Source: a virus (lineage: Duplodnaviria; Caudoviricetes). From it: a DNA stretch of 47,704 nucleotides. Position numbers and translations under genes: made by a program. The DNA lies in IMG/VR virus record IMGVR_UViG_3300031965_000049, positions 1 to 47,704 of that record. One strand, 5' to 3'. A model generated the notes under the pieces. It saw only the letters and a program-made list of their open reading frames with translations. It did not search any database and was not told the DNA's origin. Below are positions 1 to 47,704 of the stretch, one piece after another. Positions within the stretch are counted from its first letter, which is position 1. Each line of letters opens with the position of its first letter.

Positions 1-38
1 GGTTCGGCTTTCAGTTCATAGCCAAACCGTTATGCCCA
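1..38 (+). mobile_element. Right half of attC-like site (R' GTT at 29)
   Basis: ttcagttcatagccaaaccGTTATGCCCA resembles the right arms at 297..312 and 46777..46803. Confidence 0.7.
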
Positions 39-126: not shown

Positions 127-248
127 TTGCGTTTATTTTTAACATACCTACATTGTTCGCAATGGCAGCTTTTAATAACTACTGGGCATAACAAAGGCTC
201 ATATTGCATAGCCTTGTCGGTTATTAAAGTGTCGTTTTTTATTGTCAT
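30..248 (-). CDS. Small basic Cys-containing hypothetical protein (cassette cargo)
   Basis: 72-aa ORF; stop lies in the R' GTTA; start lies in the loop of the attC-like hairpin; CHCEQC motif. Confidence 0.6.
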   Translation of the reverse strand: MTIKNDTLITDKAMQYEPLLCPVVIKSCHCEQCRYVKNKRKNRKLKKKIKRLLNKRRRNDKHDGKCSNHYWA

Positions 249-318
249 TTTGCAAGTATTTTAAAGTGAGTAATTCTAATCTAAAAGGTTACGCAACATA
301 GCCAAACCATTATGCAAC
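183..318 (+). mobile_element. attC-like hairpin A1
   Basis: R'' TGGGCATAAC; arms ggctcatattgcatagcctt / aaggttacgcaacatagcc; R' mutated to ATT at 309. Confidence 0.8.
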
Positions 319-321
319 AGA

Positions 322-642
322 TTAAAGAAGCCGCAGCGACCTGAACCAATTTAAAATTCTGTCTTCCTTTGTGTGCGGATAATACCAGCTACCAGTTATT
401 AAAAAAACAAATGGCAATCCGATTAGCATTAAAAGCATCAATGCGATGGCAAATGGTAACGTAAATCTCATTATTGGTTTTACTGTATTTTTCTTTTCGG
501 TATAAAAATCAATACCTAATGAAATCCATCTATCACACATTTCCTCGCTTGAAACTTTATTTAACTCTGGAAATGTTTCTCTGAATTTTGGTATGTAATT
601 CATATCATTATGAGACCATACCCGTTTTAATTTTCTGTACAT
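322..642 (-). CDS. Hypothetical membrane protein (cassette cargo)
   Basis: 106 aa with one hydrophobic segment; lies between two hairpins. Confidence 0.7.
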   Translation of the reverse strand: MYRKLKRVWSHNDMNYIPKFRETFPELNKVSSEEMCDRWISLGIDFYTEKKNTVKPIMRFTLPFAIALMLLMLIGLPFVFLITGSWYYPHTKEDRILNWFRSLRLL

Positions 643-685
643 TTTATTTAAGTTTTTAAGTGAATAATTAAATTAAAAAAGCCGA

Positions 686-785
686 TTGCATAACACGCAA
701 TAAAGCCCATTTGGCTAAATAGTTCGGTGATAACTTGACAAGTTCGTACAAGCCAAACGTGCTTATTGCACCAGTATAAAACAGT
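686..785 (+). mobile_element. attC-like hairpin A2 (degenerate R')
   Basis: TTGCATAAC; arms gcaataaagcccatttggct / agccaaacgtgcttattgc; R' reads ccagtataaaac. Confidence 0.75.
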
Positions 786-788
786 TTG

Positions 789-1010
789 CTATTCAAACTT
801 ATCGCTCCAACATTTAATACTGCAACAGGGAGAGTATTTGCTACTAATCGGTTTACCGCAATCGCAAACCGATTTTATAACATGGGCTAAACCCAATGCT
901 TGCATTATGCTTTCATAGTAAAATCCTAAATTACATTCTTCATTTTGCACACCTTTGTCGTAAACTTCAAATAGTAGTTTTTCTATTTGCTTTCGTTTTT
1001 GTTTTGCCAT
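789..1010 (-). CDS. Small Cys-rich hypothetical protein, largely encoded inside hairpin A3
   Basis: 73-aa ORF with CDCG..CCSIKC; start at 1010 in the loop. Confidence 0.6.
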   Translation of the reverse strand: MAKQKRKQIEKLLFEVYDKGVQNEECNLGFYYESIMQALGLAHVIKSVCDCGKPISSKYSPCCSIKCWSDKFE

Positions 1011-1069
1011 TTCAATTATATTTTGTCGTTAAATAATCGCACTGTGTTTAGCCCCGAAACGTTAACTGC
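873..1069 (+). mobile_element. attC-like hairpin A3
   Basis: TTTTATAAC; arms gggctaaacccaatgc / gcactgtgtttagccc; R' GTTAACTGC at 1061. Confidence 0.8.
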
Positions 1070-1073
1070 AAGG

Positions 1074-1301
1074 CTAATCTGCGTCCGTGCATTTTGAAAA
1101 AGTCAGATTTAAAGCGTTCATTATCGCTTCGTCTGCTAAGGCAGCCGTTTGAATTTCAGTCTGCCATGTTTCGATATGCTTAACAAGGCTTGTAATTTCT
1201 ACCTTGTATTTTTCAGGTATTCGGTTTTTCCGAATGTTCATCCGAGAACCGGAAAGGAGCCTTGAAAGCTCCCCCCAGTTGATTAAGTCTTGTGCGCTCA
1301 T
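1074..1301 (-). CDS. Small putative DNA-binding regulator
   Basis: 75 aa; similar to 46813..47001 (DLINWGELSRLLSG vs DIFKWRQVSTALSG); palindromic operators upstream of its operon. Confidence 0.55.
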   Translation of the reverse strand: MSAQDLINWGELSRLLSGSRMNIRKNRIPEKYKVEITSLVKHIETWQTEIQTAALADEAIMNALNLTFSKCTDAD

Positions 1302-1594
1302 TAGTTGTTGAATTGTTCGTAATACTCAATTCTCTCATCGATGTCTTCATTTGAAAATGGTGCATTCAAATCTTCATTCAACCATTCAACAAATTCATCA
1401 TCGCAATCATCTCTTTGTACTTTGTGATTTTCATCAACGTAATCTTCAAATTCACCACTTCTTTCAACTAATACTGCAAAGCTACTGTTGTCTGCTCTGT
1501 CGTTGTCTTCCATAAGGCAAATTTCAGTATCTGAATATACTCTAACTGTGAAGTTTGTGCCTTTTGCTGCGTTTAAAATCTCTGTTGCTTTCAT
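1301..1594 (-). CDS. Acidic hypothetical protein
   Basis: 97-aa ORF, TAATG-coupled to the next gene, preceded by a promoter-like box. Confidence 0.75.
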   Translation of the reverse strand: MKATEILNAAKGTNFTVRVYSDTEICLMEDNDRADNSSFAVLVERSGEFEDYVDENHKVQRDDCDDEFVEWLNEDLNAPFSNEDIDERIEYYEQFNN

Positions 1595-1632
1595 CTTTTT
1601 AAATTTTTATTTGTTTTGTATCTTATTGATGA

Positions 1633-1700
1633 AGTAAAGATAACCACATTTGTGGTAACCACCAAATGTTTTTATAATTATTTTCCACATTTGTGGTTAT
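1633..1700 (-). promoter_or_regulatory. Promoter with two CCACATTTGTGG operators
   Basis: -7-like TATCTTTA next to taaCCACATTTGTGGtaa (1641..1658) and ttCCACATTTGTGGttat (1683..1700). Confidence 0.65.
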
Positions 1701-1737
1701 TTATTTCAATTCTAAATAAGAACAGAGAAAGCCAACC

Positions 1738-2004
1738 CTAAAAAAATAAAAACAGGGAACGGCAGTCGAGACCTCTTTTGACTTTTTGCCACTCCGTTTT
1801 AAATCCGTAAAGTGGGAGTATTTCTACATTTTCATTGTTAGGATCAACGAAAGATTGTAGTTTTTCAATTACCTGTTGAGCCTGTTCTTTATTGAGAAAT
1901 ATACATTCAAATTTTTTTTCGCTTCTAATGTTTATTTCAATCAACTGGTGCATTTCTCTGACACCAAGCGTTTGGGTTAAATCGGCTTTAATGTTTAATT
2001 CCAT
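1738..2004 (-). CDS. Hypothetical protein; C-terminus probably chimeric across a deletion at ~1766
   Basis: 88-aa ORF runs through the truncated R'' GCAGT of the neighbouring cassette. Confidence 0.55.
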   Translation of the reverse strand: MELNIKADLTQTLGVREMHQLIEINIRSEKKFECIFLNKEQAQQVIEKLQSFVDPNNENVEILPLYGFKTEWQKVKRGLDCRSLFLFF

Positions 2005-2048
2005 ATATTTATATTTTAGTGATAATTAATTACTTAAAAAGAACACGA

Positions 2049-2184
2049 AACCATAACAAAAACTATATATCAATTGGTTTTTCGGTGCTGACAACTCACT
2101 TCGTAGCCCGCAACAGCGGCGGTGCGGCTCGACAGAAATGAAGCCCGCAATCCCCAACTGTATATAGTTCCGGCCGTTATCGGC
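2049..2184 (+). mobile_element. attC-like hairpin A4
   Basis: AACCATAAC; arms aactatatatcaattgg / ccaactgtatatagtt; R' GTTATCGGC at 2176. Confidence 0.8.
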
Positions 2185-2188
2185 AACC

Positions 2189-2584
2189 TTAAAGAGCTGC
2201 ACGTTTCTTTAGCACAATAAATGCAGAATTATCCTTTAGGCTATGTAAACCATCTTCGGTTTGATAATTACAAAATTCTAACTGGTCAACAATTTTCTGC
2301 AAAGTATCGTACTTTTCTTCTTCAATTTCTTCACGGGTTTTCGGTATTACAACTGGTATGGGTTCAGCAATAAAAAATAATTTACCTTTTGAACTCCCTT
2401 CAACTGTCATGGGTTTAAATCCATATTTATTTCCCAAAATTTCCCAGTATTGGTTTATTTGTTCTTGCAAAGAACTTCCCATCGGAGTTCCACCACTTAA
2501 AAACATTACAGGGTCTCCACCGCCTTTATTGATAGCGATAATGTCGTCCATTTCTTCCTGTGTCATTTCAAATTCTTGTCTCAT
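2189..2584 (-). CDS. Hypothetical protein (cassette cargo)
   Basis: 131-aa ORF with an AT-rich leader. Confidence 0.8.
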   Translation of the reverse strand: MRQEFEMTQEEMDDIIAINKGGGDPVMFLSGGTPMGSSLQEQINQYWEILGNKYGFKPMTVEGSSKGKLFFIAEPIPVVIPKTREEIEEEKYDTLQKIVDQLEFCNYQTEDGLHSLKDNSAFIVLKKRAAL

Positions 2585-2784
2585 TTTGTTTATTTTTAAA
2601 TTGTTAATAATTAGTTTGATAAAAAAGGAAGCCGATTTCTAAAGTTGCCATGATGTGTTGTTTTATTGTTTTTGTATACACCAAAGATAAGCATTTACTT
2701 AATACGGGGCAATAGGCAAATGAAAATAAATGAAAATAATTTAAGTATTTGCTTAGTTTATATTGATTCTAAATAAAACAACCC

Positions 2785-2919
2785 ATACCAACAAAATAGC
2801 GGTCAAGTCGGGCAGTAATGGTTTGCAATCTGTATCTTTTCGCCCGTAAATAGTGGTTGACAATAACGGACACCGCCCGTAATCCTGCCCTGCCGCTATT
2901 TGCGGGAGCGTTAGGGTGC
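2785..2919 (+). mobile_element. attC-like hairpin A5
   Basis: ATACCAAC; arms aaatagcggtcaagtcgggcag / ctgccctgccgctattt; R' GTTAGGGTGC at 2910. Confidence 0.75.
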
Positions 2920-2921
2920 AT

Positions 2922-3167
2922 TTAAGAAAGTCGCTCACGTAATCTTGTGATAAACTTGTCAGCCTCAATACCTGCTTTTGACATTGAAAATTCGCCTCTA
3001 TCTTTATGACGAGCGACTAAAATAATATCGTCAATTAATGCCTCTGTAACATCAATAGTGTCTTGTAAGTTTTGAAATCTTACTTCATCAATATTACTTT
3101 CTCCTCGTGGTTCAATCATTCCACATAATCTTTGAGTTACCTCGTAAATGTTTTCTATTCTTTTCAT
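2922..3167 (-). CDS. Hypothetical protein (cassette cargo)
   Basis: ORF 2922..3209; ATG at 3167 after an AT-rich leader is the more likely start. Confidence 0.75.
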   Translation of the reverse strand: MKRIENIYEVTQRLCGMIEPRGESNIDEVRFQNLQDTIDVTEALIDDIILVARHKDRGEFSMSKAGIEADKFITRLRERLS

Positions 3168-3185
3168 TTTGAATTTAATAAAAAC

Positions 3186-3323
3186 GCACCCTGACAATGT
3201 ATATATCAAATTGGGGGTGTCGTTACAATTTGTATATTTGTGCTGTTAATTTACTTTGTCGTGGCTCGATAGGGTAGCACATTTTAATCCCCAACTTGCC
3301 ATATATTTAACGCTAGTTACCAA
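3186..3323 (+). mobile_element. attC-like hairpin A6 (last of array 1)
   Basis: GCACCCTGAC (9/10 complement of GTTAGGGTGC at 2910); arms tatatatcaaattgggg / ccccaacttgccatatat; GTT at 3316. Confidence 0.7.
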
Positions 3324-3327
3324 CATT

Positions 3328-3549
3328 TCAACCCACACCATCTATATCAATCTTCCTGATCCGATCAAATTTTTCATCGATGAAAGATACACCATTCCCG
3401 TATTCATAAGTGTTAATGTACATGCAAGCGGCATCGATAAAATCGGCTCTAGTCTCAGGTTTCGCTAGCTTATCAACCTTGTAAATTCGATCGTATTCCA
3501 TTTGCTCAAGAAACGAAACAACTCTTAATATGTATTCACGATCTGGCAT
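3328..3549 (-). CDS. Hypothetical protein
   Basis: 73-aa ORF in an operon with 3552..3764. Confidence 0.7.
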   Translation of the reverse strand: MPDREYILRVVSFLEQMEYDRIYKVDKLAKPETRADFIDAACMYINTYEYGNGVSFIDEKFDRIRKIDIDGVG

Positions 3550-3551
3550 TA

Positions 3552-3764
3552 TCAGCTGATGAACTGTCCTTTTGAATTACGCCGCCGAATATACTTCATT
3601 ACTTCCCTTACAGCCATCTGATTGAATTTATCAAGATTGTCATTGTCTCGCTTGAGCCTCCGGATCAATAGTTTCTGATCGTAAATTACGACTCCCTGCC
3701 ATGCTAACATTATTATTGCTGAAAAAATTGCAACTCCGATTATAAGGTCTTCAATTTTAATCAT
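3552..3764 (-). CDS. Small membrane-anchored protein
   Basis: N-terminal TM segment, coiled coil, C-terminal RNSKGQF motif. Confidence 0.7.
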   Translation of the reverse strand: MIKIEDLIIGVAIFSAIIMLAWQGVVIYDQKLLIRRLKRDNDNLDKFNQMAVREVMKYIRRRNSKGQFIS

Positions 3765-3781
3765 GTGTTTGTTTGTTTTTG

Positions 3782-3826
3782 TAAATTTATAACTACTTTT
3801 CTACTTGAAATATGACTTTTGTCATG
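3782..3826 (-). promoter_or_regulatory. Palindrome-class promoter (copy 1 of 5)
   Basis: ATGAC-tttt-GTCAT palindrome 21 bp from a -7-like box. Confidence 0.7.
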
Positions 3827-3828
3827 TA

Positions 3829-4008
3829 TTAAGATTTGTCTGGTGTTGTTTTCTGATGTTGTCTTACATGTTCGTAAAACTTACACAGCGCATTTTCATA
3901 CCTAGGTTTTGCGCTACTGTTTGCGTAGGCGCCCGTAGTCAGTTCGAAGAACCCGGCTATTTTTTTATTGGTTAGCAGGAGTTCTTTTTTTAGTTGGTGG
4001 ATTGTCAT
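3829..4008 (-). CDS. 59-aa hypothetical protein (possibly DNA-binding), below the ORF-track cutoff
   Basis: Hand translation: MTIHQLKKELLLTNKKIAGFFELTTGAYANSSAKPRYENALCKFYEHVRQHQKTTPDKS. Confidence 0.6.
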   Translation of the reverse strand: MTIHQLKKELLLTNKKIAGFFELTTGAYANSSAKPRYENALCKFYEHVRQHQKTTPDKS

Positions 4009-4014
4009 GATTGT

Positions 4015-4209
4015 TTAATTTAAAATAGTGTGTTTAGTGAGAATTATTTCAATAAAAGACCCATCGTTATCAGTAGTGACTTTTTGTAAATTAAAAACGT
4101 AAGCATCCATTTTAATCATAAAAGGATAAAACTTACTCATAAAAGATATTGCTTCCTTTTTTGTTTGAAAATAGTCAACTGAGCTCTTTAATCCTTGGCC
4201 TTCTGTCAC
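4015..4209 (-). CDS. Hypothetical protein
   Basis: 64-aa ORF downstream of a TATCTTTG promoter; start uncertain. Confidence 0.5.
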   Translation of the reverse strand: MTEGQGLKSSVDYFQTKKEAISFMSKFYPFMIKMDAYVFNLQKVTTDNDGSFIEIILTKHTILN

Positions 4210-4242
4210 TACTTGATATTTTACTGTTGCTTTAATCTTTGT

Positions 4243-4330
4243 TTTGTTTTAATTTATACTTCAAAGATAAGCATTTACTTAATACAAACCAAGTGTTTTT
4301 GAAAATAATTCCGTTTTTACTTAGTTTTTT
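4243..4330. repeat. 88-bp direct repeat containing a promoter (copy 1)
   Basis: Identical to 7696..7783; contains TATCTTTG on the minus strand; 24 bp also recur at 2682..2705. Confidence 0.9.
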
Positions 4331-4331
4331 T

Positions 4332-6767
4332 TCAAAACGGTGCTTCTTCCTTACCCTTTTCATAGTCTGAAAACTCAATACGTTCACCAGGCTTTGAAAA
4401 TTCAATCTCATTCCCGCCCGGGCCACACCGTGCATCAAACTCCCATCCTTTGTATTCCGCCCAAGTCTTGCACCATGATGTGAATCTGCGTTGTCCCAGA
4501 TTATTGCTGTAGTACTTATCATCTGTGTCTATCCTAAATTGCTGTATCAAATTAGGCTTACTATACCTGCCCGGGTACTTCAATTCATCTTCTGCAAATA
4601 GGACAAAATCTTCATTTGTCTGAGCTTTCAGCTTGTTATATCCTAATGCGACATATTCCGGTTTTACAAGTCCTGTATTCAGATAATGAACGATGCAATT
4701 AACCATCCAGTTATCGAAGCTGGTCCATTCTTCGCAATCCCACTCTGCAAATGGTTCGCGTTTGAATTCATCCTCGGGGGTATGATCAGGGGAAAAGTAT
4801 CTGTATAGTTCGATTTCAAATAACCGCCTGTCGTATGCCGCTCCTTTTGACTTTAAGGCATAATTAGTTGTTATCGTAATTTTGGGCGACATCGAAAAAG
4901 GAAGAAATACCTCTCCTGTGTACAGTTTTCGGATTGTAAACCCTGTTGTAATCATTGAAAATAGTTGCTCGAACTTAAAGCCTTTTACGATGTCATCAAG
5001 GAATAATATATTTGTATCCTGCCCGACTTGTTGCATTGAGAATTGGTTCTTGCTATCAAAATTCTTTCCATCTAAAGTGACCGTAGTTCTTAGTCTCTTT
5101 ACAAATTCGACGCTTAACCCCTTACCCGTCCCGCCGTTTGGCTCATTTGTCATATTTTCATCATTAAACACGATAACAGGGCAGAAGCTCGCTTTCTTAA
5201 ATGTGTGCATAAGAAATCCCAAGCTTGCACGGTAGGCGCTTATCCGGTCGCCCTGTGCATTTGATACGAGTTTTGCGAATTTAGCAACATCACAATGCCG
5301 ATAATCTTCTTTTTTCAACTGAATAAAGTCCCGCTTGATTATCTGTGTTGACCAAACAACGCCATTGAACTCCCCGTAATCATGTGTTTTTATTCCTGAG
5401 TTATCAGCTTCAACAATGCAATTTTGAAAGAATAGAAAAGCCCGGTCCTTCTTGTCCCGAATCCATTCAACCTGAGCGGGTGATACAATTGATAAACTGT
5501 TTTGATTGAATTTTGACGAATCCATGAACTCGTTGAAAATCTCTTTACGGTCTGACTCTTCGAGATATGAAAGGATAAAATCCCGAATTTCCATGAAATT
5601 GGTTTCAGTTGCTATGTTTTTTTCAATCTTCAGAAACATGAACTTGTCCTTATTTATTTCGTATCTGAAATATCCGTTCTTTTGCAGGAAATTTCTGAGG
5701 GCGAAAAAATCAATCTTAAAAGCTCCTTTTTTGCCGTAACCCCAAAATTCGGATAGGTAACCGGTTTTAGTTTTGGATCGGGGCGGCTCCGGAGTGGCTT
5801 CGGCGCTGGCCAGTGCTTGTTTATTACCGTTTAGTTTTTTCGTCGGTGTTTTGGGCATTTCAAAACGTTCGGCCAGTTCTTTTGCAGCGGACGAAAAATC
5901 GCCGTTGTGTTCTAACATTGTCAGGATCTGGAATGGATGATAACAACGCCGACTTTCGAAAGGTTCTGAATTGGCCGAAAATGGATAAAACACATCTTCT
6001 GCGATATGTCCAAATGTTGCAGACACGCCTTTCTGTTTGCCGGGCCTTCGCCAGTACTTTCCTCCTAAATGCTCCCATCCTGACCGCTGTAATAACTGTT
6101 TTGATTCTTCAACACATTCGCGATTATACCGGTCACCTGGTCGTTCTTCGTCCGGCCTTATTTCGCGGCGATCTGGTGTGTAGTCAGGTAGCGGCTCCGA
6201 TTGTTCTGACTTATCAAAACTACGGCAATAAGACAATAATGTGTCCCGATCTTCCTCTGAAATAACCGGGATATCCGTAATGCTTCCGGCTTGTAGGTCG
6301 TAACCCTTTGACGGTGCGCAAACAATTAACCCTCCTTCTCCACGCGTTTCAATCACTGTTATTTTATCGTCTATTGCAAGCTTCTGATTCCCTTCAATCT
6401 TTTCACACTTATAAAATAAGTGATACCCGCCAGAAGGGGTACGCTCGATTGGTATATCATTTTGTGATATAATTTCAGAAACTTCATCAATGCTAATCAA
6501 AGCCGTAAATACATGCTCTGCATTGCCTAAATGATTATCGATGTCGACGACCTCCAGGTTGCCGGACACTGCCCCACATATGATACATACACCAAACGTA
6601 TTGCCATCCTTATAGTTTCGAAATGTTGATAGGTCGTATTCCGTCGGCCGCTCTTTCATAAAGTTGCGCCACGTCTTTAGCATTGACGGATATTTGTCTA
6701 CAAGCTTGCAGGGGAGTGCCGATAATCCTGCTTTATTGTATAGGAATAGAGCTTTTATATGTTCCAT
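4332..6767 (-). CDS. Bifunctional primase-polymerase fused to a P-loop helicase
   Basis: Prim-pol motifs VVDID, TPSGGYHLFY, ETRGEGGLIVCAPS; Walker A GGTGKG; Walker B LFLDD; ITTN. Confidence 0.9.
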   Translation of the reverse strand: MEHIKALFLYNKAGLSALPCKLVDKYPSMLKTWRNFMKERPTEYDLSTFRNYKDGNTFGVCIICGAVSGNLEVVDIDNHLGNAEHVFTALISIDEVSEIISQNDIPIERTPSGGYHLFYKCEKIEGNQKLAIDDKITVIETRGEGGLIVCAPSKGYDLQAGSITDIPVISEEDRDTLLSYCRSFDKSEQSEPLPDYTPDRREIRPDEERPGDRYNRECVEESKQLLQRSGWEHLGGKYWRRPGKQKGVSATFGHIAEDVFYPFSANSEPFESRRCYHPFQILTMLEHNGDFSSAAKELAERFEMPKTPTKKLNGNKQALASAEATPEPPRSKTKTGYLSEFWGYGKKGAFKIDFFALRNFLQKNGYFRYEINKDKFMFLKIEKNIATETNFMEIRDFILSYLEESDRKEIFNEFMDSSKFNQNSLSIVSPAQVEWIRDKKDRAFLFFQNCIVEADNSGIKTHDYGEFNGVVWSTQIIKRDFIQLKKEDYRHCDVAKFAKLVSNAQGDRISAYRASLGFLMHTFKKASFCPVIVFNDENMTNEPNGGTGKGLSVEFVKRLRTTVTLDGKNFDSKNQFSMQQVGQDTNILFLDDIVKGFKFEQLFSMITTGFTIRKLYTGEVFLPFSMSPKITITTNYALKSKGAAYDRRLFEIELYRYFSPDHTPEDEFKREPFAEWDCEEWTSFDNWMVNCIVHYLNTGLVKPEYVALGYNKLKAQTNEDFVLFAEDELKYPGRYSKPNLIQQFRIDTDDKYYSNNLGQRRFTSWCKTWAEYKGWEFDARCGPGGNEIEFSKPGERIEFSDYEKGKEEAPF

Positions 6768-7118
6768 ATAGTTGAGGTGTTTTGTTAGACTTATTCAAAG
6801 CCGGACTACTAAGTTAGATTATTTGTTTTTTAAGTGCTATAGGACTGTATTTGTAATCGACTATTAACCCACGCTTCCAATTATTGTGATATTCAAGTAC
6901 TTTAACCGCTTTTTTTATTGCCATTTCTTCGGATATTTATGTGATTGTTCATGCCGTGTTTGTGAACTCATTTCGGAATTTGTTTTTTCCTCAAACTCGC
7001 TGCCTCGTGTCGAACTGCTTTTAAGAATTTTAAATACGACAAGCATCATGGCTAGGCTACGTATGATAGGATTGCTAATGTTATTTCTGCCATTTTTTTT
7101 GTTTAAGTTTAAGTTTCA

Positions 7119-7165
7119 CAATAGTACATTTCAATTTTCGATTTAAACATGACTTTTGTCATGTT
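7119..7165 (-). promoter_or_regulatory. Palindrome-class promoter (copy 2 of 5)
   Basis: AACATGAC-tttt-GTCATGTT at 7146..7165; core 21 bp from a -7-like box. Confidence 0.7.
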
Positions 7166-7187
7166 GTAGTGTTTTTTTGCAGATTCA

Positions 7188-7436
7188 TTAGTATTCAAAT
7201 TCTGAAATGTCGTAATCAAAGTTTTCTCTAAGCATTGTATAAACTTCTTCGCCAAGTTCATTCCATTTTGCAGGATTGCCGTTCATTTCTTCAATCTCTT
7301 CATCGGTTAAATAATGATAAAAATTGTTATCATTAAAATCAACTTCTTGAATCATGTATTCTGCAACATTGCCGATTATGTACTGCTTGTTGTCGTTAAC
7401 GATTGCTTTTGCAATTTGTAATGCTGAATTTTTCAT
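7188..7436 (-). CDS. Acidic hypothetical protein
   Basis: 82-aa ORF. Confidence 0.75.
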   Translation of the reverse strand: MKNSALQIAKAIVNDNKQYIIGNVAEYMIQEVDFNDNNFYHYLTDEEIEEMNGNPAKWNELGEEVYTMLRENFDYDISEFEY

Positions 7437-7450
7437 TGTGTCAGTTTTTA

Positions 7451-7681
7451 TTAAAATAAGTTTTTGTAGCTGTTTTCAATGTATGCAAAATCTTCTTCTA
7501 CAACAACAATGTTTTGTCCTTTAGAATCGTATGGATGTCCGTTTTCTGAAACAAAGTCAAAAATAAAAGCAACTGCACCTCTTAATTGTTTTTCGGCAAT
7601 CAAAGTACATTTCTGATTTTGCTGTCTTTCAAGGCCTGTCCAATCTGCAACTTGTGGTAATTGTTCTTTTAAAGTTTTCAT
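7451..7681 (-). CDS. Hypothetical protein
   Basis: ORF 7451..7717; ATG at 7681 lies downstream of the promoter box at 7715..7722. Confidence 0.7.
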   Translation of the reverse strand: MKTLKEQLPQVADWTGLERQQNQKCTLIAEKQLRGAVAFIFDFVSENGHPYDSKGQNIVVVEEDFAYIENSYKNLF

Positions 7682-7695
7682 TTTAAGTTCCTCCG

Positions 7696-7783
7696 TTTGT
7701 TTTAATTTATACTTCAAAGATAAGCATTTACTTAATACAAACCAAGTGTTTTTGAAAATAATTCCGTTTTTACTTAGTTTTTT
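7696..7783. repeat. 88-bp direct repeat containing a promoter (copy 2)
   Basis: Identical to 4243..4330; includes the last codons and stop of the helicase gene. Confidence 0.9.
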
Positions 7784-9467
7784 CTATCACTACCTGCTTC
7801 CGCTCAAATTCCTCAATCTGTGCAGCACATGTTTTTTCCATCCGCCAGACCCATCCTTGCGAGTGTCGTTTTTCTTTGGCGTAATCTTCCAATCCTTCTA
7901 CGCCATATTTTAGAGCAATCTGCCGCGTAATCCATCCTGCCTTATACCCTCTATTTGATGCGACTTTTTCGAGTTCTTCAAACTTAGATGGCTCTTTATA
8001 TAGGCTGCCATGATCCGGGATGATATCGTAGTCGATCAACTTCAATTCAGCCATTATTAATTCACGTTCACTATCATAAGTGTAGCCGCAATAGGGGCAA
8101 ATCATCACAGATGGGGCGATGTACGCACCGCATCCTAGTCGGCCTTTTTTATCCGGTGTATAGCCTGTAGATTGGTCTTTCTGCACTCCTGGTCTGGATT
8201 GTTTGCCGCATTCTTTTACAGGAGGTGCGCCGCCGCCCGTTGGTTGTTCGTGAATAAGGCTATAGATTCGTTTGTCCCTGTAATTGCCCAACCTGCCACC
8301 TAAATGTCCTCCATGTCCTCCGAAGTCCAAGATGTTAAAGTACTTTTTGCCAGGGAATGGCCGGCTCCCCCTTCCAATCATTTGGAGCCAAAGATTATCG
8401 GATAGTGTCGCCCGGTTAATTATCACTGTCTGGATAGGCTTGAAGTTAAATCCAGTTGTTAATATACCGGCATTCACTAAGATATCGAACTTTCTATCTT
8501 TCCACTGTTGTATAACATCTTTTCTCTCTCCTGACATTTCAGAATAAGCGGCCATATAATTATCATATGCCGCTTTTTTCGCTTCATAGACAGTTTTTTG
8601 CCCTTCCTTTTGATTGTCCGGTAGTTTTGGCTTACTGACCGCAGATGTTACAAATTTTGCTTTTATTCCGCGATTGTTGAATTCCCGGCAGGTTTCAATG
8701 ACATGTTGTATATTTACACAAAAGCAAATTGTAATTGTATTAGGTGTATGCTTGAGCCATTGATCGACAACTCCGGCGTAAAGCTCAGGACGGTTAAACT
8801 TTGCAAATATTTGATTTTCGTCATAATCTCCTGTCTTTCGGTCGATCTTGACGCCTTCTGTTGATACGGATTCAACGCCATAATAGCGATCTGACACTAG
8901 TTTCCCTTTTGCAATTAGTTCAGTAACAGTTGGGCCGGTTACTAATGCGCTGTAGTCTTCTACAAGTTGTCTTTGTTTCCCGGCGCGTTGCGGAGTGGCA
9001 GTGAAGCCTAACACGTATGCGCCGTTAAATACGTTCAGCCCATCTTCAAAAAACGGATTAAATTCTTGTTTATGACACTCGTCTACTATAATAAGATCAA
9101 ATGATGCAAAAAAGCTTTGCCAGTCTTTCAGGTATTGTTTTGCATTAATCCGATTTTTTAAGGTCTGAGCCATCGCAATATAACAACTGTAATATTTCGG
9201 GGGTGGTGACATCTGCCCCGCTGTAATCTTGTAGGCATTTATCCCGAATTCTTCAAGTGTTCCACCGGTCTCTGTGAGCAATTCGATACGATCAGTAAGG
9301 ATTAAAACGCGGTTTTTTTTAGCCTGCATTTGTTTAGCTATGTAGCTGAACATGACCGTCTTCCCAGAGCCGGTTGGACTTTGAATAACGATATGTTTAT
9401 GTCTTTCAGCCATCTTTTTGCGCGTCCGATTGATTACATCTTGCTGATAATCGTATAGTTGAATCAT
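7770..9467 (-). CDS. Superfamily 2 DExH helicase with C-terminal Zn-finger
   Basis: SPTGSGKT, IVDECH, GFTATP, LTTGFN, QMIGRGSR; CPYCG. Confidence 0.92.
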   Translation of the reverse strand: MIQLYDYQQDVINRTRKKMAERHKHIVIQSPTGSGKTVMFSYIAKQMQAKKNRVLILTDRIELLTETGGTLEEFGINAYKITAGQMSPPPKYYSCYIAMAQTLKNRINAKQYLKDWQSFFASFDLIIVDECHKQEFNPFFEDGLNVFNGAYVLGFTATPQRAGKQRQLVEDYSALVTGPTVTELIAKGKLVSDRYYGVESVSTEGVKIDRKTGDYDENQIFAKFNRPELYAGVVDQWLKHTPNTITICFCVNIQHVIETCREFNNRGIKAKFVTSAVSKPKLPDNQKEGQKTVYEAKKAAYDNYMAAYSEMSGERKDVIQQWKDRKFDILVNAGILTTGFNFKPIQTVIINRATLSDNLWLQMIGRGSRPFPGKKYFNILDFGGHGGHLGGRLGNYRDKRIYSLIHEQPTGGGAPPVKECGKQSRPGVQKDQSTGYTPDKKGRLGCGAYIAPSVMICPYCGYTYDSERELIMAELKLIDYDIIPDHGSLYKEPSKFEELEKVASNRGYKAGWITRQIALKYGVEGLEDYAKEKRHSQGWVWRMEKTCAAQIEEFERKQVVIEKTK

Positions 9468-9480
9468 GTGATTTTTGTTA

Positions 9481-9515
9481 GGTTCAATTTATTGAACTGT
9501 ATATATTTGGTAGTT
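9481..9515 (+). mobile_element. attI-like site heading array 2
   Basis: GGTTCAATTTATTGAACTGTATATATTTGGTAGTT, identical to 44233..44267; its GTT (9513) starts a cassette matched by TGTGGCTAAC at 10262. Confidence 0.7.
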
Positions 9516-10313
9516 AGCCACAATACGAAGAAAGCCTCCGAACTGCAACATCATAATATTGTTTTTCCTTTTCAATTCCAATTGATTTTCGATTTAATTT
9601 TAAACAAGCAAGGTTTGTTGTTCCTGAACCCATTGTATTATCTAAAACCACATCATTTTTATTGGTGTAAGTCAATATTAACCATTCTAAAAGTATTAAT
9701 GGTTTTAAAGTTGGATGATGAAATTTCCCTGTTTCGTGTTCTTTTGAAATTGAAATAATTGAAGTTGGGAATTTTTCATCACTTATAATAGTAGGCGTTT
9801 CAATAAAAGTACCATAACAACTATTCTTTTGTGGTTGTTTCATATTACCCTTACTGTGATTTCTTTTATGTGGTTCGCATTTTACCATTTGTGGGTTATA
9901 TGTTGGTAATTGCTTGTAAAATATAATAATATCCTCGTGTTGTCTTAATGGCATCCTACTTGCATTTAAAAAGCCTGTTTTGGCTACCTATCCCAACATA
10001 AATTATACCTCCAAAGTTTCTTATTGCTAATCATTAATTCTGCGGTAAATAAACCCTGCCCAAACAATATTATAATACCATTATCTTTTATAACTCGCTC
10101 ATACTGCTCCCAAAGTAAATTAAACGGTAACACACTATCCCATTTTGCACTTTTGTTTCCTTTGTTTAAAACGCCATAAGGTAAATCGCAAATAATAGCA
10201 TCTATACTCTTATCTTCAATGAAAGGAAAAACATCAAAGCAATCAGCATTAACCAACGTACTGTGGCTAACATGTGCTATATCCCATTTGGGGTTTTGTG
10301 GTAAATTCAACAT
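9514..10313 (-). pseudogene. N6A/N4C DNA methyltransferase (beta class), frameshifted near 9988
   Basis: DLPY in 9984..10313; HPTLKP and LDNTMGSGTT in 9514..9954; one extra base restores ..WD(K)VAKTGFLNASRMP.. Confidence 0.85.
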
Positions 10314-10398
10314 TCGTTCTCGTATTAAAAGTTATTGTAAATTTATAGTTTGGTGCTTCGTAGTCCCAAACGGTACATAGCACCAAACGTTATGCACA
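10262..10398 (+). mobile_element. attC-like hairpin B1
   Basis: TGTGGCTAAC; arms gtgctatatcccatttgggg / cccaaacggtacatagcac; R' GTTATGCACA at 10389. Confidence 0.85.
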
Positions 10399-10401
10399 AC
10401 C

Positions 10402-11402
10402 TTAAAACAGGCTCGGTGCATCTTTGAAAGTTTTAATTCGTTTGTTCGACATATCTACATATTTCTTTTCAATATCGTACCCGATTGCTTTTCTGCCCTC
10501 TTTTACACTCATTGCCATTTCTGTGCCACTTCCTGCAAACGGTACAACTACAAGGTCGTTTTTCGGCTACAAGTGTTTATTAATATCCTTGTGAGCTTTT
10601 CGGGCTTTATTGTATCATGGTCATAGGTTCCAGTTTCGTAGTTTGGTAATCTTATCACATCTCCATAAAACCATTCATTGTTAAATGGTCTGCGTAAGTC
10701 CTCATATTCCTTGCGTAAGTCCTCATATTCCTTGCGTAAGTGTGGGTAGCACCAGTTTTGCAACTTTTCATACATTTCTTTTGTAAACATTGCAGGTTCA
10801 GTTTTATCTAAACTTAAACAAGCAGAAGCAACCCCGCCACCATTTATAGCAGTTCCAAGTGCTGTATTAATATCTTTCAATACTATTTTACCCTTTGCCT
10901 TTCCAATTTCGCAACGTATGTAATCTCTAATATGGTAAACGCATTGCGTTGAATTATAGGTTTCATTGCTATACATTAGCAATCTTTCAGTAAGCGGTGC
11001 AAATGTTCTTAAATCGGGGTTGAATCTAATCTGTTGCTTATGGTCGTGTGTGTTTTCCCATACAAAACTATTCAGCAGGTTAAAATACTTATCAAATATT
11101 ACTTGTGTGTATGCTATTCGTCTTGCATCTCCGTACCAAATTATTGTACCATTATCTGCAAGTATTCTTTTGCACTCAATAGCCCATTTTTCAACGTCTT
11201 TTAAATAATCATCAAAGCTATTCCAAACAAAATCAAACGCCCCTTTTACCTCAAAATACGGAGGGTCTGCAATTATTAAGTTTGCACATTTATCGGGTAG
11301 TTCATTTTTTAAAAAATCGGAATGGAAAACACAATCAAAAGGCTGTGCATAACACGTGGTATGGTTAATTGGGGCTGTATCTGTACTCATAATTTTCTGC
11401 AT
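10402..11402 (-). pseudogene. N6A/N4C DNA methyltransferase, frameshifted in an A5 run at 10559..10563
   Basis: IADPPY and HDTIKP; the SAM motif VVPFAGSGTE..RKAIGYDIE continues in another frame to a stop at 10402. Confidence 0.85.
10691..10741. repeat. 21-bp tandem repeat (about 2.4 units) encoding LRKEYED
   Basis: tgcgtaagtcctcatattcct x2 followed by tgcgtaagt. Confidence 0.9.
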
Positions 11403-11474
11403 TTTATTAAGTTTCTACTAGGTGGATAGGTTGTCGGTATCTAATCCCCAACTAACCATACCACAACACGCTAT
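11344..11474 (+). mobile_element. attC-like hairpin B2 (R' core deleted)
   Basis: TGTGCATAAC; arms gtggtatggttaattgggg / cccaactaaccataccac; the expected GTTATGC is missing before gctattt. Confidence 0.8.
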
Positions 11475-12092
11475 TTAAAAAAGCTCTCGTTGTTGTAAAA
11501 GCATTTTTGCATGATTTGCGCTTTTCAAATTTAGCTCAAAGCCTATTATTTTTCTTTTCAATATTCTCGCTGCTAATAAAGATTTTCCACTACCGCAAAA
11601 AGGGTCTAAAATTAAATCCCCTTCTTTTGTGAAATGATTAAAGAAAAAAGCAAACAATGAAGTTTGTTTATCAAAATTTTGAGAATACTGTTTTATCATT
11701 CTTATTTTTTTTGCTTCAATCAAATTTGAAAAACATTCGTGATTGTTCTCGAATCTCGTCTTTCCAAACCTGAACTCACTCACAAAGTCGGCTAATTGCA
11801 TTGGAGCTTTATTGCTTATCAAGTTTGGAATTACTGTGTTAATTGCGTACATTCGTACAAAATAGTCTAAAAATTTATTTGAAAAAGGAATTAATACTCG
11901 TTCGTTAGTCATTAAAAAAGTGTGACCTGAGCATTTTCTCATCAGTATATTTTCAAACTCATCTAAATTCATCCCAAATGGCGGGTCTGCGAAAACTAAA
12001 TCAACGGTTCTATTGTCAATTTCAAATAATTTAGAATCGCAATTGTACAATTCAACATATTCATCTATGTAAATTAAGTGTTCTTTTAGCAT
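11475..12092 (-). CDS. N6A/N4C DNA methyltransferase (compact, apparently intact)
   Basis: FADPPF; LILDPFCGSGKS; IIGFELN. Confidence 0.88.
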   Translation of the reverse strand: MLKEHLIYIDEYVELYNCDSKLFEIDNRTVDLVFADPPFGMNLDEFENILMRKCSGHTFLMTNERVLIPFSNKFLDYFVRMYAINTVIPNLISNKAPMQLADFVSEFRFGKTRFENNHECFSNLIEAKKIRMIKQYSQNFDKQTSLFAFFFNHFTKEGDLILDPFCGSGKSLLAARILKRKIIGFELNLKSANHAKMLLQQRELF

Positions 12093-12334
12093 AAAGCATT
12101 ACTTAAATTAATAACGGTTTCAACGTATCCTTTATTATTTAAAATAAAGTCAAACAATGCCGTCTTAATGTCATTTTTTTGCTTTGTTTTTTTCATACTT
12201 AATGTATAATATTTTGCTATTTTTTCAAGTCCTTGCAATGCTTCTCTTTTATGAAAATCATTCCCTGTCTCAATAAATTTTAAAACATCGTAGATTATCT
12301 TATCCTTGCACTTATATTTATTAAATTCTCTCAT
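12086..12334 (-). CDS. Hypothetical protein co-cassetted with the methyltransferase
   Basis: ORF 12086..12364; likely ATG at 12334; overlaps the MTase start. Confidence 0.65.
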   Translation of the reverse strand: MREFNKYKCKDKIIYDVLKFIETGNDFHKREALQGLEKIAKYYTLSMKKTKQKNDIKTALFDFILNNKGYVETVINLSNALC

Positions 12335-12353
12335 TGTTAAAATATAAAAAACA

Positions 12354-12488
12354 GCGCATAACACACAATGTAAAATATACGGGTGTTTGTTGCAAATTGA
12401 ACGGTCCTACCTTTAATTGTCATTCGTGTATCGGGATAGGATACCGCTTTTAATCCCGTACATTTCATATTGTCAAACGTTATGCCTC
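12354..12488 (+). mobile_element. attC-like hairpin B3
   Basis: GCGCATAAC; arms acaatgtaaaatatacggg / cccgtacatttcatattgt; R' GTTATGCCTC at 12479. Confidence 0.85.
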
Positions 12489-12674
12489 ATTGTGGAGGAC
12501 ACAACAAAACGTGCTTTTCGTTTCGATACTATCTACGTATCCACCATCCCAACCTGTTTTTAGTTCTATTGTTATTTCACTGCCTATTTCATTACAAAAA
12601 CCATCGTTTTCAGCACCTTCATAATCATAAAAGGTATTTTGTTTCCAATGCTTACAAGTAGAACAATGAGGCAT
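12480..12674 (-). CDS. Small Cys-rich hypothetical protein (cassette cargo)
   Basis: CSTCKHW..GFC..FCCVLH; stop in the R' GTTA; an upstream ATG at 12735 in the loop is out of frame by 1 nt. Confidence 0.7.
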   Translation of the reverse strand: MPHCSTCKHWKQNTFYDYEGAENDGFCNEIGSEITIELKTGWDGGYVDSIETKSTFCCVLHNEA

Positions 12675-12803
12675 AACGGCAAAGTATATTTAATGCCTGT
12701 GTTTCTGCGTTATTCAAGTTCTGTTCTTTTTTCATATTTATCTGTATTTTGAAAATTTGTAATTCTAAATCAGGCACTAAACATACCTGCGACCGTTGTG
12801 TAT
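12663..12803 (+). mobile_element. attC-like hairpin B4
   Basis: ACAATGAGGCATAAC is the 15/15 complement of 12479..12493; arms gtatatttaatgcctg / caggcactaaacatac; GTT at 12795. Confidence 0.85.
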
Positions 12804-14027: not shown

Positions 14028-14796
14028 CTTTTGTTTTTTTACCATTTAATGTTTCATAGACCGTAATGCCTTCGAAGATATTTGCGGTTACTGCTTTTTC
14101 AGCAATCATTAGGCGTTCTTCCAATTCGGAAATATATTCGTCATCTCGGTCAACTTTGATCACTGCCAGTTTCATTGCCGATTCACGGCGCGGGTCATAA
14201 CTTACAAACCAACAATATGGAGAGTTGAAGTTCATAATGTGCGCCTGAATTTGTGCATAATAGGTGTGCGATTTGTCGATTCCTGTAAGTTGTAAATCCA
14301 AGTTTGACTGATGTACCATGACGTTGTATGGGCACTTGATTTCACCAGGGATGCCAAGATTTTCAAAATCCGCACTTCCGCCAAAGAAGTTGTATTTACC
14401 TTTGCGGAATGTGACTTTGTTAACTTTTTTACCAAGCCATTTTTCAAACTCCGCGCGGGCTTCCGGTTCATACTTAATGCCCCATCTTGTTTGTTTAAAA
14501 TCGGAGGTCATTTGCTGTTCGATATACTCGTCAACTTTATCCGGGGCGAGTGTTCGCTCAATTATCAACAGTCGTACATAATTCACTGCTTTGGCCCCAA
14601 ATAACTCACCCCGCCCGCGCCCCATCAAATCGGGCATACGAGAGGCGGTAAATTTTCCTAACCTTACTGCGAACCAGTCTTTAGATTGTTGTTCAACCTG
14701 CTTTTTTTCTTGCACGTATGCGGGGTCTGAACTGCCCGATATTGCTTCGGATAATTCGGCCCATGTGCTGCTATAGGTTGCTTGTTGTTCGCTCAT
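14023..14796 (-). CDS. YqaJ/lambda-exonuclease family nuclease
   Basis: QQSKDWFAVRLGKFTAS, WGIKYEPEAR, GGSAD, EIKCP, YYAQIQ, FVSYDPR. Confidence 0.9.
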   Translation of the reverse strand: MSEQQATYSSTWAELSEAISGSSDPAYVQEKKQVEQQSKDWFAVRLGKFTASRMPDLMGRGRGELFGAKAVNYVRLLIIERTLAPDKVDEYIEQQMTSDFKQTRWGIKYEPEARAEFEKWLGKKVNKVTFRKGKYNFFGGSADFENLGIPGEIKCPYNVMVHQSNLDLQLTGIDKSHTYYAQIQAHIMNFNSPYCWFVSYDPRRESAMKLAVIKVDRDDEYISELEERLMIAEKAVTANIFEGITVYETLNGKKTKA

Positions 14797-18334: not shown

Positions 18335-19591
18335 ATGGGTTCTACATCACTCGAAATTGAATTCACTGAAAGGCAGGAATCGGCAATAGAGCTAATTGCC
18401 AACAGGCGATTCTCACTATTAAGGGGAGGTAGCCGGAGCGGGAAGACATTCCTAATTGTTGCTGTAATTTTACTCAGGGCTAAGAAGAAAAAATCAAGAC
18501 ATGCAATCCTACGATTCCGGTTTTCACACGTTAAACAATCAGTATGGTATGACACTTTCCCAAAGGTTGCAACGCTATTTGGTATTAAGTACAAAGAGAA
18601 TAAATCAGATTGGTTCATAACGTTAGAAAATGGATCGGAAATTTGGTTCGGAGGTCTTGATGACAAGGATCGGGTTGATAAAATACTCGGGAATGAATAC
18701 TCCACACTTTTTCTTAACGAAGCATCGCAAATCAGCTATGACGCATATACGACAGTTGTATCGCGTCTCGCTGAAAATTCAGGGCTTGAAAACCGGATGA
18801 TTATTGATGAAAACCCACCGACTAAAGCGCATTGGACATATAAGATATTTATTGAAGGGATAGAGCCAGAAACAAAGACACCGCTTCGAAATAAAGAGCA
18901 TTACGGCACAATGCAGGTCAACCCGACTGATAACGTAGATAACTTACCTGACAACTACCTGGAGCTTCTTGAAAACCTTCCGACCGCAAAACGAAGGCGG
19001 TTTTTGAAAGGTGAATTTGCTGATATAGTTGAGGGCGCATATTGGTCAGAAGAAATAATTAATAAATTTAGGGTATTACAGGCACCGCAAATGCAATCAG
19101 TTGTTGTATCAATTGACCCCGCGATATCATCAAATGAAGATTCAGACGAGACGGGCATAACAGTTGAGGGCAAGGGTACAGATGGGCGCGGCTACTTACT
19201 TGAGGATAAATCAGGTGTTTATTCGCCACTTGAATGGGCCATGCTCGCTTGTTCACTGTATCAAAAATGGGATGCCGATATTATTGTTGCTGAAAAAAAT
19301 CAGGGCGGAGAGATGGTTAAACATACGATTAAGGTTTACAATGGAAATATACCGGTAAAGCTTGTCCATGCGAGCAAAGGCAAACTGGCACGCGCTGAAC
19401 CTATATCTGCCTTATACGACGAGGGCAAGATATCGCACGTCGGAGTTTATTCGGACGCAGAAGAGGAGTTGACAACATATACAGGATCGGTCGGTGATAA
19501 GTCACCTAACAGGCTAGACTCGATAGTGTGGGGGTTTACTCATTTATTCCCATCACGGGGAACCCCAGGTGCCCCAATCATATTTAGTTGA
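18335..19591 (+). CDS. terL: Terminase large subunit
   Basis: GGSRSGKT, FLNEASQ, DENPP; nuclease motifs SIDPA, DETGI, EKNQGG, PNRLDS. Confidence 0.95.
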   Translation: MGSTSLEIEFTERQESAIELIANRRFSLLRGGSRSGKTFLIVAVILLRAKKKKSRHAILRFRFSHVKQSVWYDTFPKVATLFGIKYKENKSDWFITLENGSEIWFGGLDDKDRVDKILGNEYSTLFLNEASQISYDAYTTVVSRLAENSGLENRMIIDENPPTKAHWTYKIFIEGIEPETKTPLRNKEHYGTMQVNPTDNVDNLPDNYLELLENLPTAKRRRFLKGEFADIVEGAYWSEEIINKFRVLQAPQMQSVVVSIDPAISSNEDSDETGITVEGKGTDGRGYLLEDKSGVYSPLEWAMLACSLYQKWDADIIVAEKNQGGEMVKHTIKVYNGNIPVKLVHASKGKLARAEPISALYDEGKISHVGVYSDAEEELTTYTGSVGDKSPNRLDSIVWGFTHLFPSRGTPGAPIIFS

Positions 19592-38189: not shown

Positions 38190-38238
38190 TATATGACAAC
38201 AAAAATTAAAGTTTAGTATATGACAACAAAAATTAAAG
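38185..38238. repeat. 27-bp perfect tandem duplication
   Basis: tttagtatatgacaacaaaaattaaag x2. Confidence 0.95.
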
Positions 38239-39518: not shown

Positions 39519-39559
39519 TCGCCGGAAAATTTTTCACAGGTTACCGGTTCCACTGCGCT

Positions 39560-39646
39560 TTCCGTGTCGTCCACGCAGGTGGCAATCTGAATAATGGCAG
39601 TCAAGCGGGTGTCGCAGCGCGTAATTCGAATAACGGGTCGCAGCTA
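39560..39646 (+). repeat. DGR template repeat (TR) lacking 27 nt relative to the VR
   Basis: AAT/AAC-rich copy of the VR; nine VR codons have no counterpart. Confidence 0.9.
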
Positions 39647-43420: not shown

Positions 43421-43452
43421 TTTGTTTTGTTTTTAAGTGGTTAAAATTTTTA

Positions 43453-43487
43453 GGTTCAATTTATTGAAGTGGGTATATTTGGTAGTT
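43453..43487 (+). mobile_element. attI-like site, apparently empty
   Basis: 32/35 identical to 9481..9515; no attC-like hairpin follows before the next copy. Confidence 0.6.
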
Positions 43488-43512
43488 ATTTATCTTTTCA
43501 AAGTCTATACTC

Positions 43513-43999: not shown

Positions 44000-44232
44000 A
44001 AGTTATCGATTACAAATTTTACATTGTGTATTTTTCTTATTGTTCGGGACTTCTTAACTCCGTTATAACTCAAATTATTCGATTTCGCATAATCCGGAAT
44101 AGTTTGAAGATTTAGAAAATCACCCGCCAGTTCAATTAATTGAACCAATCCGTCGCTACTCCATTTGCCTCTTTGAATAGATTCACCTAGTTTATTAAGT
44201 GAAAGTTTCTCGTATTCAGATATTTGTGTCAT
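43996..44232 (-). CDS. Small putative DNA-binding protein abutting the attI-like site
   Basis: TIPDYAKSNNLSYNGVKK is HTH-like; its ATG is adjacent to 44233. Confidence 0.7.
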   Translation of the reverse strand: MTQISEYEKLSLNKLGESIQRGKWSSDGLVQLIELAGDFLNLQTIPDYAKSNNLSYNGVKKSRTIRKIHNVKFVIDNL

Positions 44233-44267
44233 GGTTCAATTTATTGAACTGTATATATTTGGTAGTT
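44233..44267 (+). mobile_element. attI-like site heading array 1
   Basis: Identical to 9481..9515; GTTAACGCCT at 44265 is matched by AGGCGTTAAC at 45009. Confidence 0.7.
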
Positions 44268-44272
44268 AACGC

Positions 44273-44607: not shown

Positions 44608-44626
44608 TTTGTGTTTTTTTTAATGA

Positions 44627-45008: not shown

Positions 45009-45143
45009 AGGCGTTAACACGTGCTATATGTCAAGTCTGGCAGTATCAGTTATTCAAGTTCAGTTCTCGCATTAGCACCGTAGCGGCTCGATATTGTTTC
45101 TTTCCGTATCCATCCCTGCATATAGCACCAACCGTTATGTGCA
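45009..45143 (+). mobile_element. attC-like hairpin C1
   Basis: AGGCGTTAAC; arms gtgctatatg / catatagcac; R' GTTATGTGCA at 45134. Confidence 0.8.
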
Positions 45144-45190
45144 ATAGCCTTTCTTCGTAGCAAGGTTAGTGCTTAATAAGTCTTTTTGTT

Positions 45191-46674: not shown

Positions 46675-46808
46675 TGCACACAACACACGGTATAAGCAAA
46701 AACCGTTGCAGTGCGTAAGTCAAAGTATGTAGTTCTAATTAAGTTCATATCGTGTTGATTGTGTTGTGTTTCAAATCGGTTTCAGCTCATACCGTCACCG
46801 TTATGGCT
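46675..46808 (+). mobile_element. attC-like hairpin C2
   Basis: TGCACACAAC (9/10 complement of 45134); arms acggtataagcaaaaaccg / cggtttcagctcataccgt; R' GTTATGGCT at 46800. Confidence 0.85.
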
Positions 46809-47553: not shown

Positions 47554-47604
47554 TAAATCGAAAAATAAACAAAGAAAACCGAAGCCATTGACTGTTATTT
47601 GTAG

Positions 47605-47704
47605 CCGTTATGCCCAATAGTGGTTTGAGCATTTACCATCATGTTTATCATTTCTTCTGCGTTTATTAAGCAATCGTTTTATTTTCTTCTTTAGCTTTCT
47701 ATTT
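47605..47704. repeat. 100-bp terminal direct repeat (copy 2)
   Basis: Identical to 27..126. Confidence 0.95.

Follow-up and report, generated by a model that had tools for sequence, protein, structure and literature searches.

How gene cassettes gain their attC sites is a long-standing open question. Clusters of attC-like sites that lack an integrase (CALINs) and carry methyltransferase genes have been described in virulent phages (Qi et al. 2023, PMC9892861), where two divergent sites were reported in Polaribacter phage P12002L. Among integron-bearing phyla, Bacteroidota are just named in the portion of PMC8618304 consulted, and IntegronFinder 2.0 reports one complete integron in Bacteroidetes proper. 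Here we analysed a stretch of 47,704 nucleotides (the window; IMG/VR record IMGVR_UViG_3300031965_000049) from a tailed phage with annotated terminase, portal, tape measure, primase, helicase, Erf-like protein and exonuclease. Its early region of minus-strand genes carries 12 attC-like hairpins, defined by hand, which share a single polarity and form three clusters similar to phage CALINs. Phage CALINs are known already; the inverted, translated form appears to be new, and the parts of PMC9892861 that we drew on describe neither inverted polarity, loop starts nor a Bacteroidota host system.

We consider it probable that these are integron-like cassettes of a Bacteroidota type, in which the genes are inverted relative to the sites, a host Xer-like recombinase moves the cassettes at G|TT, and the hairpin loop supplies a start codon and leader where a gene lacks its own ATG. 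The sites, their single polarity, the antisense genes, the in-frame loop ATGs and the exchange points at both cores are observed directly.

The hairpins are imperfect inverted repeats closed by AAC ... GTT cores; ten are 131-136 bp long, one is short (S2) and one long (S3) (Table 1). A stem scan for sites of 110-135 bp detected 8 on the plus strand of the early region; its minus strand, the 26-kb structural region and 40 dinucleotide shuffles yielded none. On the plus strand, a short spacer follows the left TAAC and a longer one precedes the right GTTA, mostly in a 2/5 or 1/5 arrangement. The asymmetry of the sites is this longer right spacer; an extra left-arm base occurs in some sites only, and the extrahelical bases near L'' with canonical spacers, typical of attC, were not found. 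Rfam gave no match at gathering score in the window, and blastn of S8 against GenBank phages gave none. By our own site calls, each cluster has at least two attC-like sites within 3 kb and no integrase, as CALINs do. An IntI with its specific insertion beside an array, as in a complete integron, was not found, nor were phage genes sense to the site and ending before it, as in integron cassettes. No integrase was found in the phage when 52 open reading frames (ORFs) were compared with PHROGs, 29 with Pfam and all six frames with TIGR02249, the record being rated 82% complete.

Each cluster opens at a GTTA outside any hairpin (47607, 9513 and 44265). A pad sequence present in three copies contains the GTTA at 9513, 43485 and 44265; the copy ending at 43485 has no hairpin within 1.5 kb. 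In two host arrays, the stretch preceding the first cassette bears a weak likeness to the pad end, and the pad may be an attI-like docking site. The first-pass annotation had treated 183-12803 as a single span. Array sites do occupy it, but they form two arrays (A and B) about 6 kb apart, with primase, helicase and no sites in between, and a third array (C) lies at 44265-46807. The annotation's treatment of the system as canonical is at odds with the different site asymmetry and with a candidate host enzyme without the IntI insertion. S12 is 96% identical to a site in another phage, and the identity stops at the GTTA.

Two patterns made from the window sites found 14 and 127 viral stretches; for the looser of them the estimated total is about 330. 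A covariance model built from 38 sites, which scored S1 and S6 from outside its training set at 33 and 57 bits, was searched in 61 genomes of the phylum of Flavobacterium aquariorum (Bacteroidota) and matched 36. Xer-like recombinase matches occurred in 21 of the 61 genomes, namely 18 of 36 with sites versus 3 of 25 without (p 0.0025), and 12 of 22 recombinase matches outside F. aquariorum lay within 12 kb of a site by hand count, among the site matches listed (150 of 314). None of the five Xer-like proteins aligned has the insertion present in true IntI, and the best of them reached 108 bits against the TIGR02249 cut-off of 265.

Gene orientation was counted as the longer open frame between adjacent sites, after removal of 11 redundant viral loci. 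Host intervals were sense in 81 of 91 cases and viral intervals antisense in 148 of 169, with no strongly sense interval among the 169; a single polarity was kept in 57 of 59 multi-site viral loci. The minus strand was the more stably folded at 11/12 window sites, 65 of the first 70 viral sites and 52 of the first 70 host sites, a folding bias also shown by attC bottom strands (PMC5027507). Among 593 near-identical site pairs, homology continued into the left flank only in 29, the right only in 4, both in 10 and neither in 550. Moreover, the bases outside the left core complemented the cassette's own start at four of four positions in 121/184 viral cassettes, compared with 5/184 for the same hairpin; such complementarity was found in 70/91 host cassettes and, over 5-8 bases, in 9/12 window cassettes. 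Two soil-metagenome runs (X1 and X2) contain the window phage. In X2, cassette C1 reaches a depth of 50 and is preceded either by the pad (depth 14) or by a different hairpin arm (depth 32), with CC|GTT as the joint in both cases; in X1, two alternative sequences follow C1 and diverge past the right core. This sequence evidence makes plus the top strand and the phage genes antisense, because the host-array convention, the folding bias, the flank linkage and the C1 fork at CC|GTT agree. The first-pass annotation, which had placed all cargo on the minus strand, antisense to the sites, and proposed a comparison with ORF orientation in host arrays, is thus borne out by four computational tests.

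The opposite assignment, a canonical orientation with the minus strand on top, crossover at the left core and genes stopping in R'', appears improbable. In host arrays that lie downstream of the recombinase, the genes are sense although the site asymmetry is the same, the folding bias makes minus the bottom strand, the flank linkage runs 29 to 4, and C1 retains its right-hand hairpin while its left neighbour changes. Left-core exchange of hairpins does occur, as that assignment would have it, and coding-strand stops overlap TAAC at 61 of 272 viral sites, as stops of classical cassettes likewise do. In favour of the same assignment, HattCI called attC1 of P12002L in gene direction (PMC9892861 supplement). 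Against it, this site, cloned in that direction, failed to recombine; attC2 recombined with IntI1 only as the bottom strand (PMC9892861). Our stem and site scan of P12002L detected eight more sites of window type among minus-strand genes; the site at 14502-14625 adjoins a sense gene, and attC2 is a twice-repeated pad-like sequence pointing against the genes. The attC1 and attC2 results are indirectly consistent with plus as the top strand.

Antisense stops lie in the right core at the 61 viral sites just mentioned and 13 nt beyond it at 50/272, versus 1/125 and 3/125 host sites. The stops at 30, 9514 and 12480 had been assigned to the GTTA of R'. They are indeed the complement of TTA in GTTA, but the GTTA at 9513 ends the non-hairpin pad rather than an attC, and the window has more stops at a distance of 12 or 13 nt to the right of the core (six, at 322, 1074, 2189, 2922, 12808 and 46813) than within it (three).

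An ORF that crosses the left core is opened by an ATG in the hairpin at 101/264 viral sites versus 7/125 host sites, with 65, 25 and 11 cases in the three frames. Where the first 15 codons of the gene body contain no ATG, the loop ATG is in frame in 68/74 cases, compared with 27.7 expected on swapping and reached in 0/5000 permutations; where the body has its own ATG, the figure is 23/50 versus 19.2 expected. Adenines at -3, -12 and -13, the Bacteroidota initiation signature (PMC6847099), occur together in a fraction of 0.40 of in-frame loop ATGs and 0.43 of phage genes, versus 0.12 of other loop ATGs and 0.04 of host ones. In the window, the ATGs that the first-pass annotation had placed in loops at 248, 1010, 10313, 11402 and 12735 are all present within hairpins, the last one base off the body frame as it had said, and LLCPV, HVIKS/HVSHS and TCYAQ are three different frames across the left core; seven of the 12 sites give no start codon. 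For the methyltransferase MT1, 64 distinct relatives were obtained from 80 loci. In 40 of them the core lies 23 nt before the first motif with no nearby Met; all 40 are intact, with 27 leaders, and 36 end in TAAC. Six more have such a leader with a hairpin that the scan missed or misplaced, 17 are hairpin-free with their own Met, and 1 is of another kind. The suggested check of methyltransferase homologues thus came out as an own Met or one of 27 hairpin leaders. Similarly, 20/69 parsed homologues of C1 begin directly at the body and others have leaders in different frames. From these comparisons it is likely that the loop supplies a start and a leader of 13-25 residues where a gene lacks its own ATG; the earlier idea of a portable start gains support from both frame matching and initiation signals.

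Incidental loop ATGs in real cassettes, with the proteins starting at a GTG or TTG left of the core, would account for the open loop ATG also seen in 62/93 unused viral hairpins and for leader sequences that are not conserved. We think this quite unlikely. An alternative start codon is present in 32 of the 40 MT1 relatives, but it is missing from the other 8 and its position is not fixed; moreover, the frame match (68/74 versus 28) has no counterpart where the body has an ATG (23/50 versus 19), the initiation signature is confined to in-frame ATGs, and one loop encodes a conserved half of 44 residues.

Exchange takes place at the left core, too. Of 39 near-identical leader pairs, 37 have bodies unrelated to each other, always in the same frame, and in S1-like hairpins of other contigs identity ends 2-3 bases past the left core. 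The protein encoded at 789-1010 has 31 homologues at the protein level, of which 5 share both halves, 24 the loop-encoded half only and 2 the tail only; the tails that follow the core valine in those 24 are of about 12 different kinds. Judged from these alignments, hairpins also swap at the left core, so that a given leader or N-terminal half comes to stand before unrelated bodies. Shuffling of repeated hairpins by a phage Red-like annealing protein and exonuclease, without a site-specific enzyme, could draw on the Erf-like protein and exonuclease that the phage encodes, the lack of a recombinase among its genes and the near-identity of many sites between phages. It has little probability in our judgement, as homology stops at both cores in most site pairs, the C1 fork joins an unrelated pad and attC arm with just CCGTT in common, and complementary cassette ends fit a folded circular intermediate.

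Under the inverted-cassette reading, the bottom strand, here the coding strand, would fold and recombine, with the host enzyme acting in trans during infection. Whole cassettes would move at the right core and insert at pads or after stop codons; left-core exchange would re-pair hairpin and leader with gene bodies, and selection would retain in-frame pairs. The inverted layout would place the hairpin just past the stop of the upstream gene on early mRNA, and therefore insertions at TAAC would spare that gene. It is plausible that the modelled mRNA hairpin influences expression. A rival reading holds that the hairpins in the phage have ceased to be recombination sites and act mainly at the RNA level, coupling or tuning translation. 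Predicted mRNA folds, with a more open start region (0.55-0.73 versus 0.42-0.52 unpaired), the degenerate right cores of S1, S2 and S9 and the influence of attC hairpins on translation in class 1 integrons (PMC8876359) speak for it, yet near-identical C1 copies in two contexts within one sample, conserved AAC/GTT cores and phage-type antisense genes in host arrays make it highly improbable. A wider proposal, possible but short of probable, is that an integron-like system not yet described is common to Bacteroidota and their phages, and that its simple Xer-like recombinase uses both hairpin cores, the right to move cassettes and the left to graft a start-bearing hairpin or whole N-terminal half onto new DNA; for phages it would serve as a natural gene trap and protein-domain shuffler, and it would show how new cassettes acquire attC.

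Several observations weigh against the reading of inverted cassettes moved by a host enzyme. The viral loci were chosen by phage-derived patterns and are related to each other, so their counts are not independent, and the polarity rule has exceptions in 21/169 viral and 10/91 host intervals. Homology is lost at both cores in 550/593 pairs; therefore the left core acts as a breakpoint as well, and polarity is less clear-cut than that of classical integrons. Half of the site-bearing genomes (18/36) have no recombinase match at E 1e-40, and the candidate enzyme is without the insertion reported as essential for integron function, though not fully conserved (PMC8138268). A GTG or TTG stands between core and first motif in window MT1 as well as in the 32 relatives above. 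Finally, three of the five loop-start genes (starts 10313, 11402 and 12735) are frameshifted. Run contigs carry the same letters at the frameshifts with no indel variants, although these contigs are possibly the source of the record and hence not independent. The frameshifts in MT1, MT2 and the gene at 12480 look from the sequence like lesions of the window lineage, because a relative, L286, with nearly the same MT1 leader, has an intact gene. Searches for read joints marking cassette excision, with uncovered run stretches excluded, gave none that was convincing; a low-depth skip at 1619-3152 lies off the cores.

Table 1. Sites, pads and cassette genes of the window (positions on the 47,704-nt stretch)
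Feature	Position	Strand	Remark
Right arm of a different attC-like hairpin	1..26	+	differs from 47579-47604, same 100 bases after both
Cassette C1 gene, 72 aa	30..248	-	starts in S1 loop, frame 1; stop = complement of TTA in GTTA at 29
S1	185..316	+	right core ATTA
Cassette gene	322..642	-	own ATG; stop 13 nt right of core
S2	687..780	+	short, degenerate
Two-part 73-aa protein	789..1010	-	44-aa N-half within enlarged S3 loop, C-half past left core
S3	874..1068	+	long loop, 187 bp core to core
Three small genes between S3 and S4	1074..2004	-	promoter-like repeat near 1642
S4	2050..2183	+	
Cassette gene	2189..2584	-	own ATG; stop at +13; promoter-like repeat near 2689
S5	2785..2917	+	irregular right arm
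Cassette gene	2922..3209	-	own ATG left of hairpin
S6	3188..3323	+	last of array A
Docking pad (putative)	9475..9516	+	ends in GTTA; start of array B
DNA methyltransferase MT1	9514..10313	-	starts in S8 loop, frame 0; stop in GTTA; frameshift near 9985
S8	10264..10396	+	
DNA methyltransferase MT2	10402..11402	-	starts in S9 loop, frame 2; frameshift near 10550
S9	11346..11477	+	right core GCTA
Methyltransferase MT3 and small gene	11475..12364	-	own ATG each
S10	12355..12486	+	
Small gene	12480..12735	-	loop ATG 12735 one base out of frame with body; stop in GTTA
S11	12670..12802	+	last of array B
Pad copy	43447..43488	+	apparently empty
Pad copy	44227..44268	+	start of array C
S12	45011..45141	+	
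S13	46677..46807	+	last of array C
Non-hairpin entry site of array A	47579..47610	+	closes circle onto cassette C1

Because bases 27-126 recur at 47605-47704, the genome is likely a circle of 47,578 bp. Bases 1-26 occur on a contig of their own, with depth 32 compared with 14 in run X2, and, by this sequence comparison, are part of another, co-occurring molecule that also carries C1. The phage host is likely a member of the Bacteroidota, judging from the site family and the initiation signals. None of the listed datasets holding the window phage is an RNA dataset. Contig depth at 2149-2460 is 82 in run X2 versus about 14 for the genome, which suggests that this cassette is common to other genomes in the sample. 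MT2 contains a tandem 21-bp repeat (10700-10740; KEYEDLR twice). On the minus strand, a TATCTTT(G/A) motif, which resembles the Bacteroidetes -7 promoter box, recurs at 1642, 2689, 4269, 7722, 16106, 44929 and 47498; three copies are inside cassettes, and therefore cassettes are not all promoterless. The tail gene at 38220-39518 has a repeat pair at its end (39389-39466 and 39559-39636) in which 10/11 differences are A in the second copy, a pattern known from diversity-generating retroelements with their variable and template repeats. After the repeat at 39559-39636 there is no ORF for a reverse transcriptase; a short stretch near 39735 resembles the C-terminal remnant of one.

Viral sites fall into length classes of <100 bp (69), 115-135 bp (182) and at least 180 bp (11); host sites are nearly all 115-135 bp, and the long viral sites looked at contain coding sequence. 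Very small cassettes (20-40 bp) that contain no gene and have complementary ends precede a hairpin in L001 (about 18560-18700) and L156. In L001, the closest relative, the flanks could not be aligned for an empty-site comparison, and the scan missed at least one site. A true IntI with the insertion, its C-terminus apparently out of frame, lies at L250:14233-15333, about 4 kb from Bacteroidota-type sites. In host arrays L236, L241, L246 and L040, a few cassettes are antisense and contain genes of phage type (RNase H-like, methyltransferase), which suggests gene traffic between phages and host arrays. PHROGs matches among host cassettes were 3/6 antisense versus 6/30 sense, numbers too few to lean on. 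The comparison gave no evidence for body inversion between host (sense) and phage (antisense): just one distant family, at 25-33% identity, occurred in both orientations.

Our literature search, made outside subscription journals and the supplements of bioRxiv papers, turned up neither the inverted, translated form nor the host system. With the same hairpin joined to unrelated genes at the left core, and with gene families that occur with and without a hairpin, attC acquisition becomes testable. If the reading is true, a recombination site that doubles as translation start and makes protein halves interchangeable would be a new route to phage mosaicism and methyltransferase swapping. The findings also point to a large cassette system, with a candidate enzyme without the IntI hallmark, in a phylum with very few integrons reported by IntegronFinder. 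Parts of the system are present in a cultured phage and a cultured Flavobacterium.

Taken together, the phage sites resemble integron attC/IntI arrays in their imperfect hairpins with AAC/GTT cores, better-folding bottom strand and complementary cassette ends, and host arrays of phage-type sites are likewise tandem and beside a tyrosine recombinase. They differ in having a left spacer of 1-2 nt and a right spacer of 4-6 nt instead of an extra base near L'', a candidate enzyme without the IntI insertion, exchange at the left core as well, and phage genes that lie antisense to the site and are often translated across it. P12002L shares this site type, its genes lying on the opposite strand. As with the short ORFs in attI1 (ORF-11) and attC (PMC8876359), a recombination site lends translation signals to a cassette gene. 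However, those ORFs are sense, mostly separate peptides that act by coupling, whereas the phage start is antisense, in the cassette's own hairpin, and fused to the protein. In synthetic attC sites placed within proteins (Nivina et al. 2020, PMC7439510), a hairpin is also coding and permits exchange of protein parts; those sites were engineered for IntI1, and the phage case would be a natural counterpart with another site architecture.

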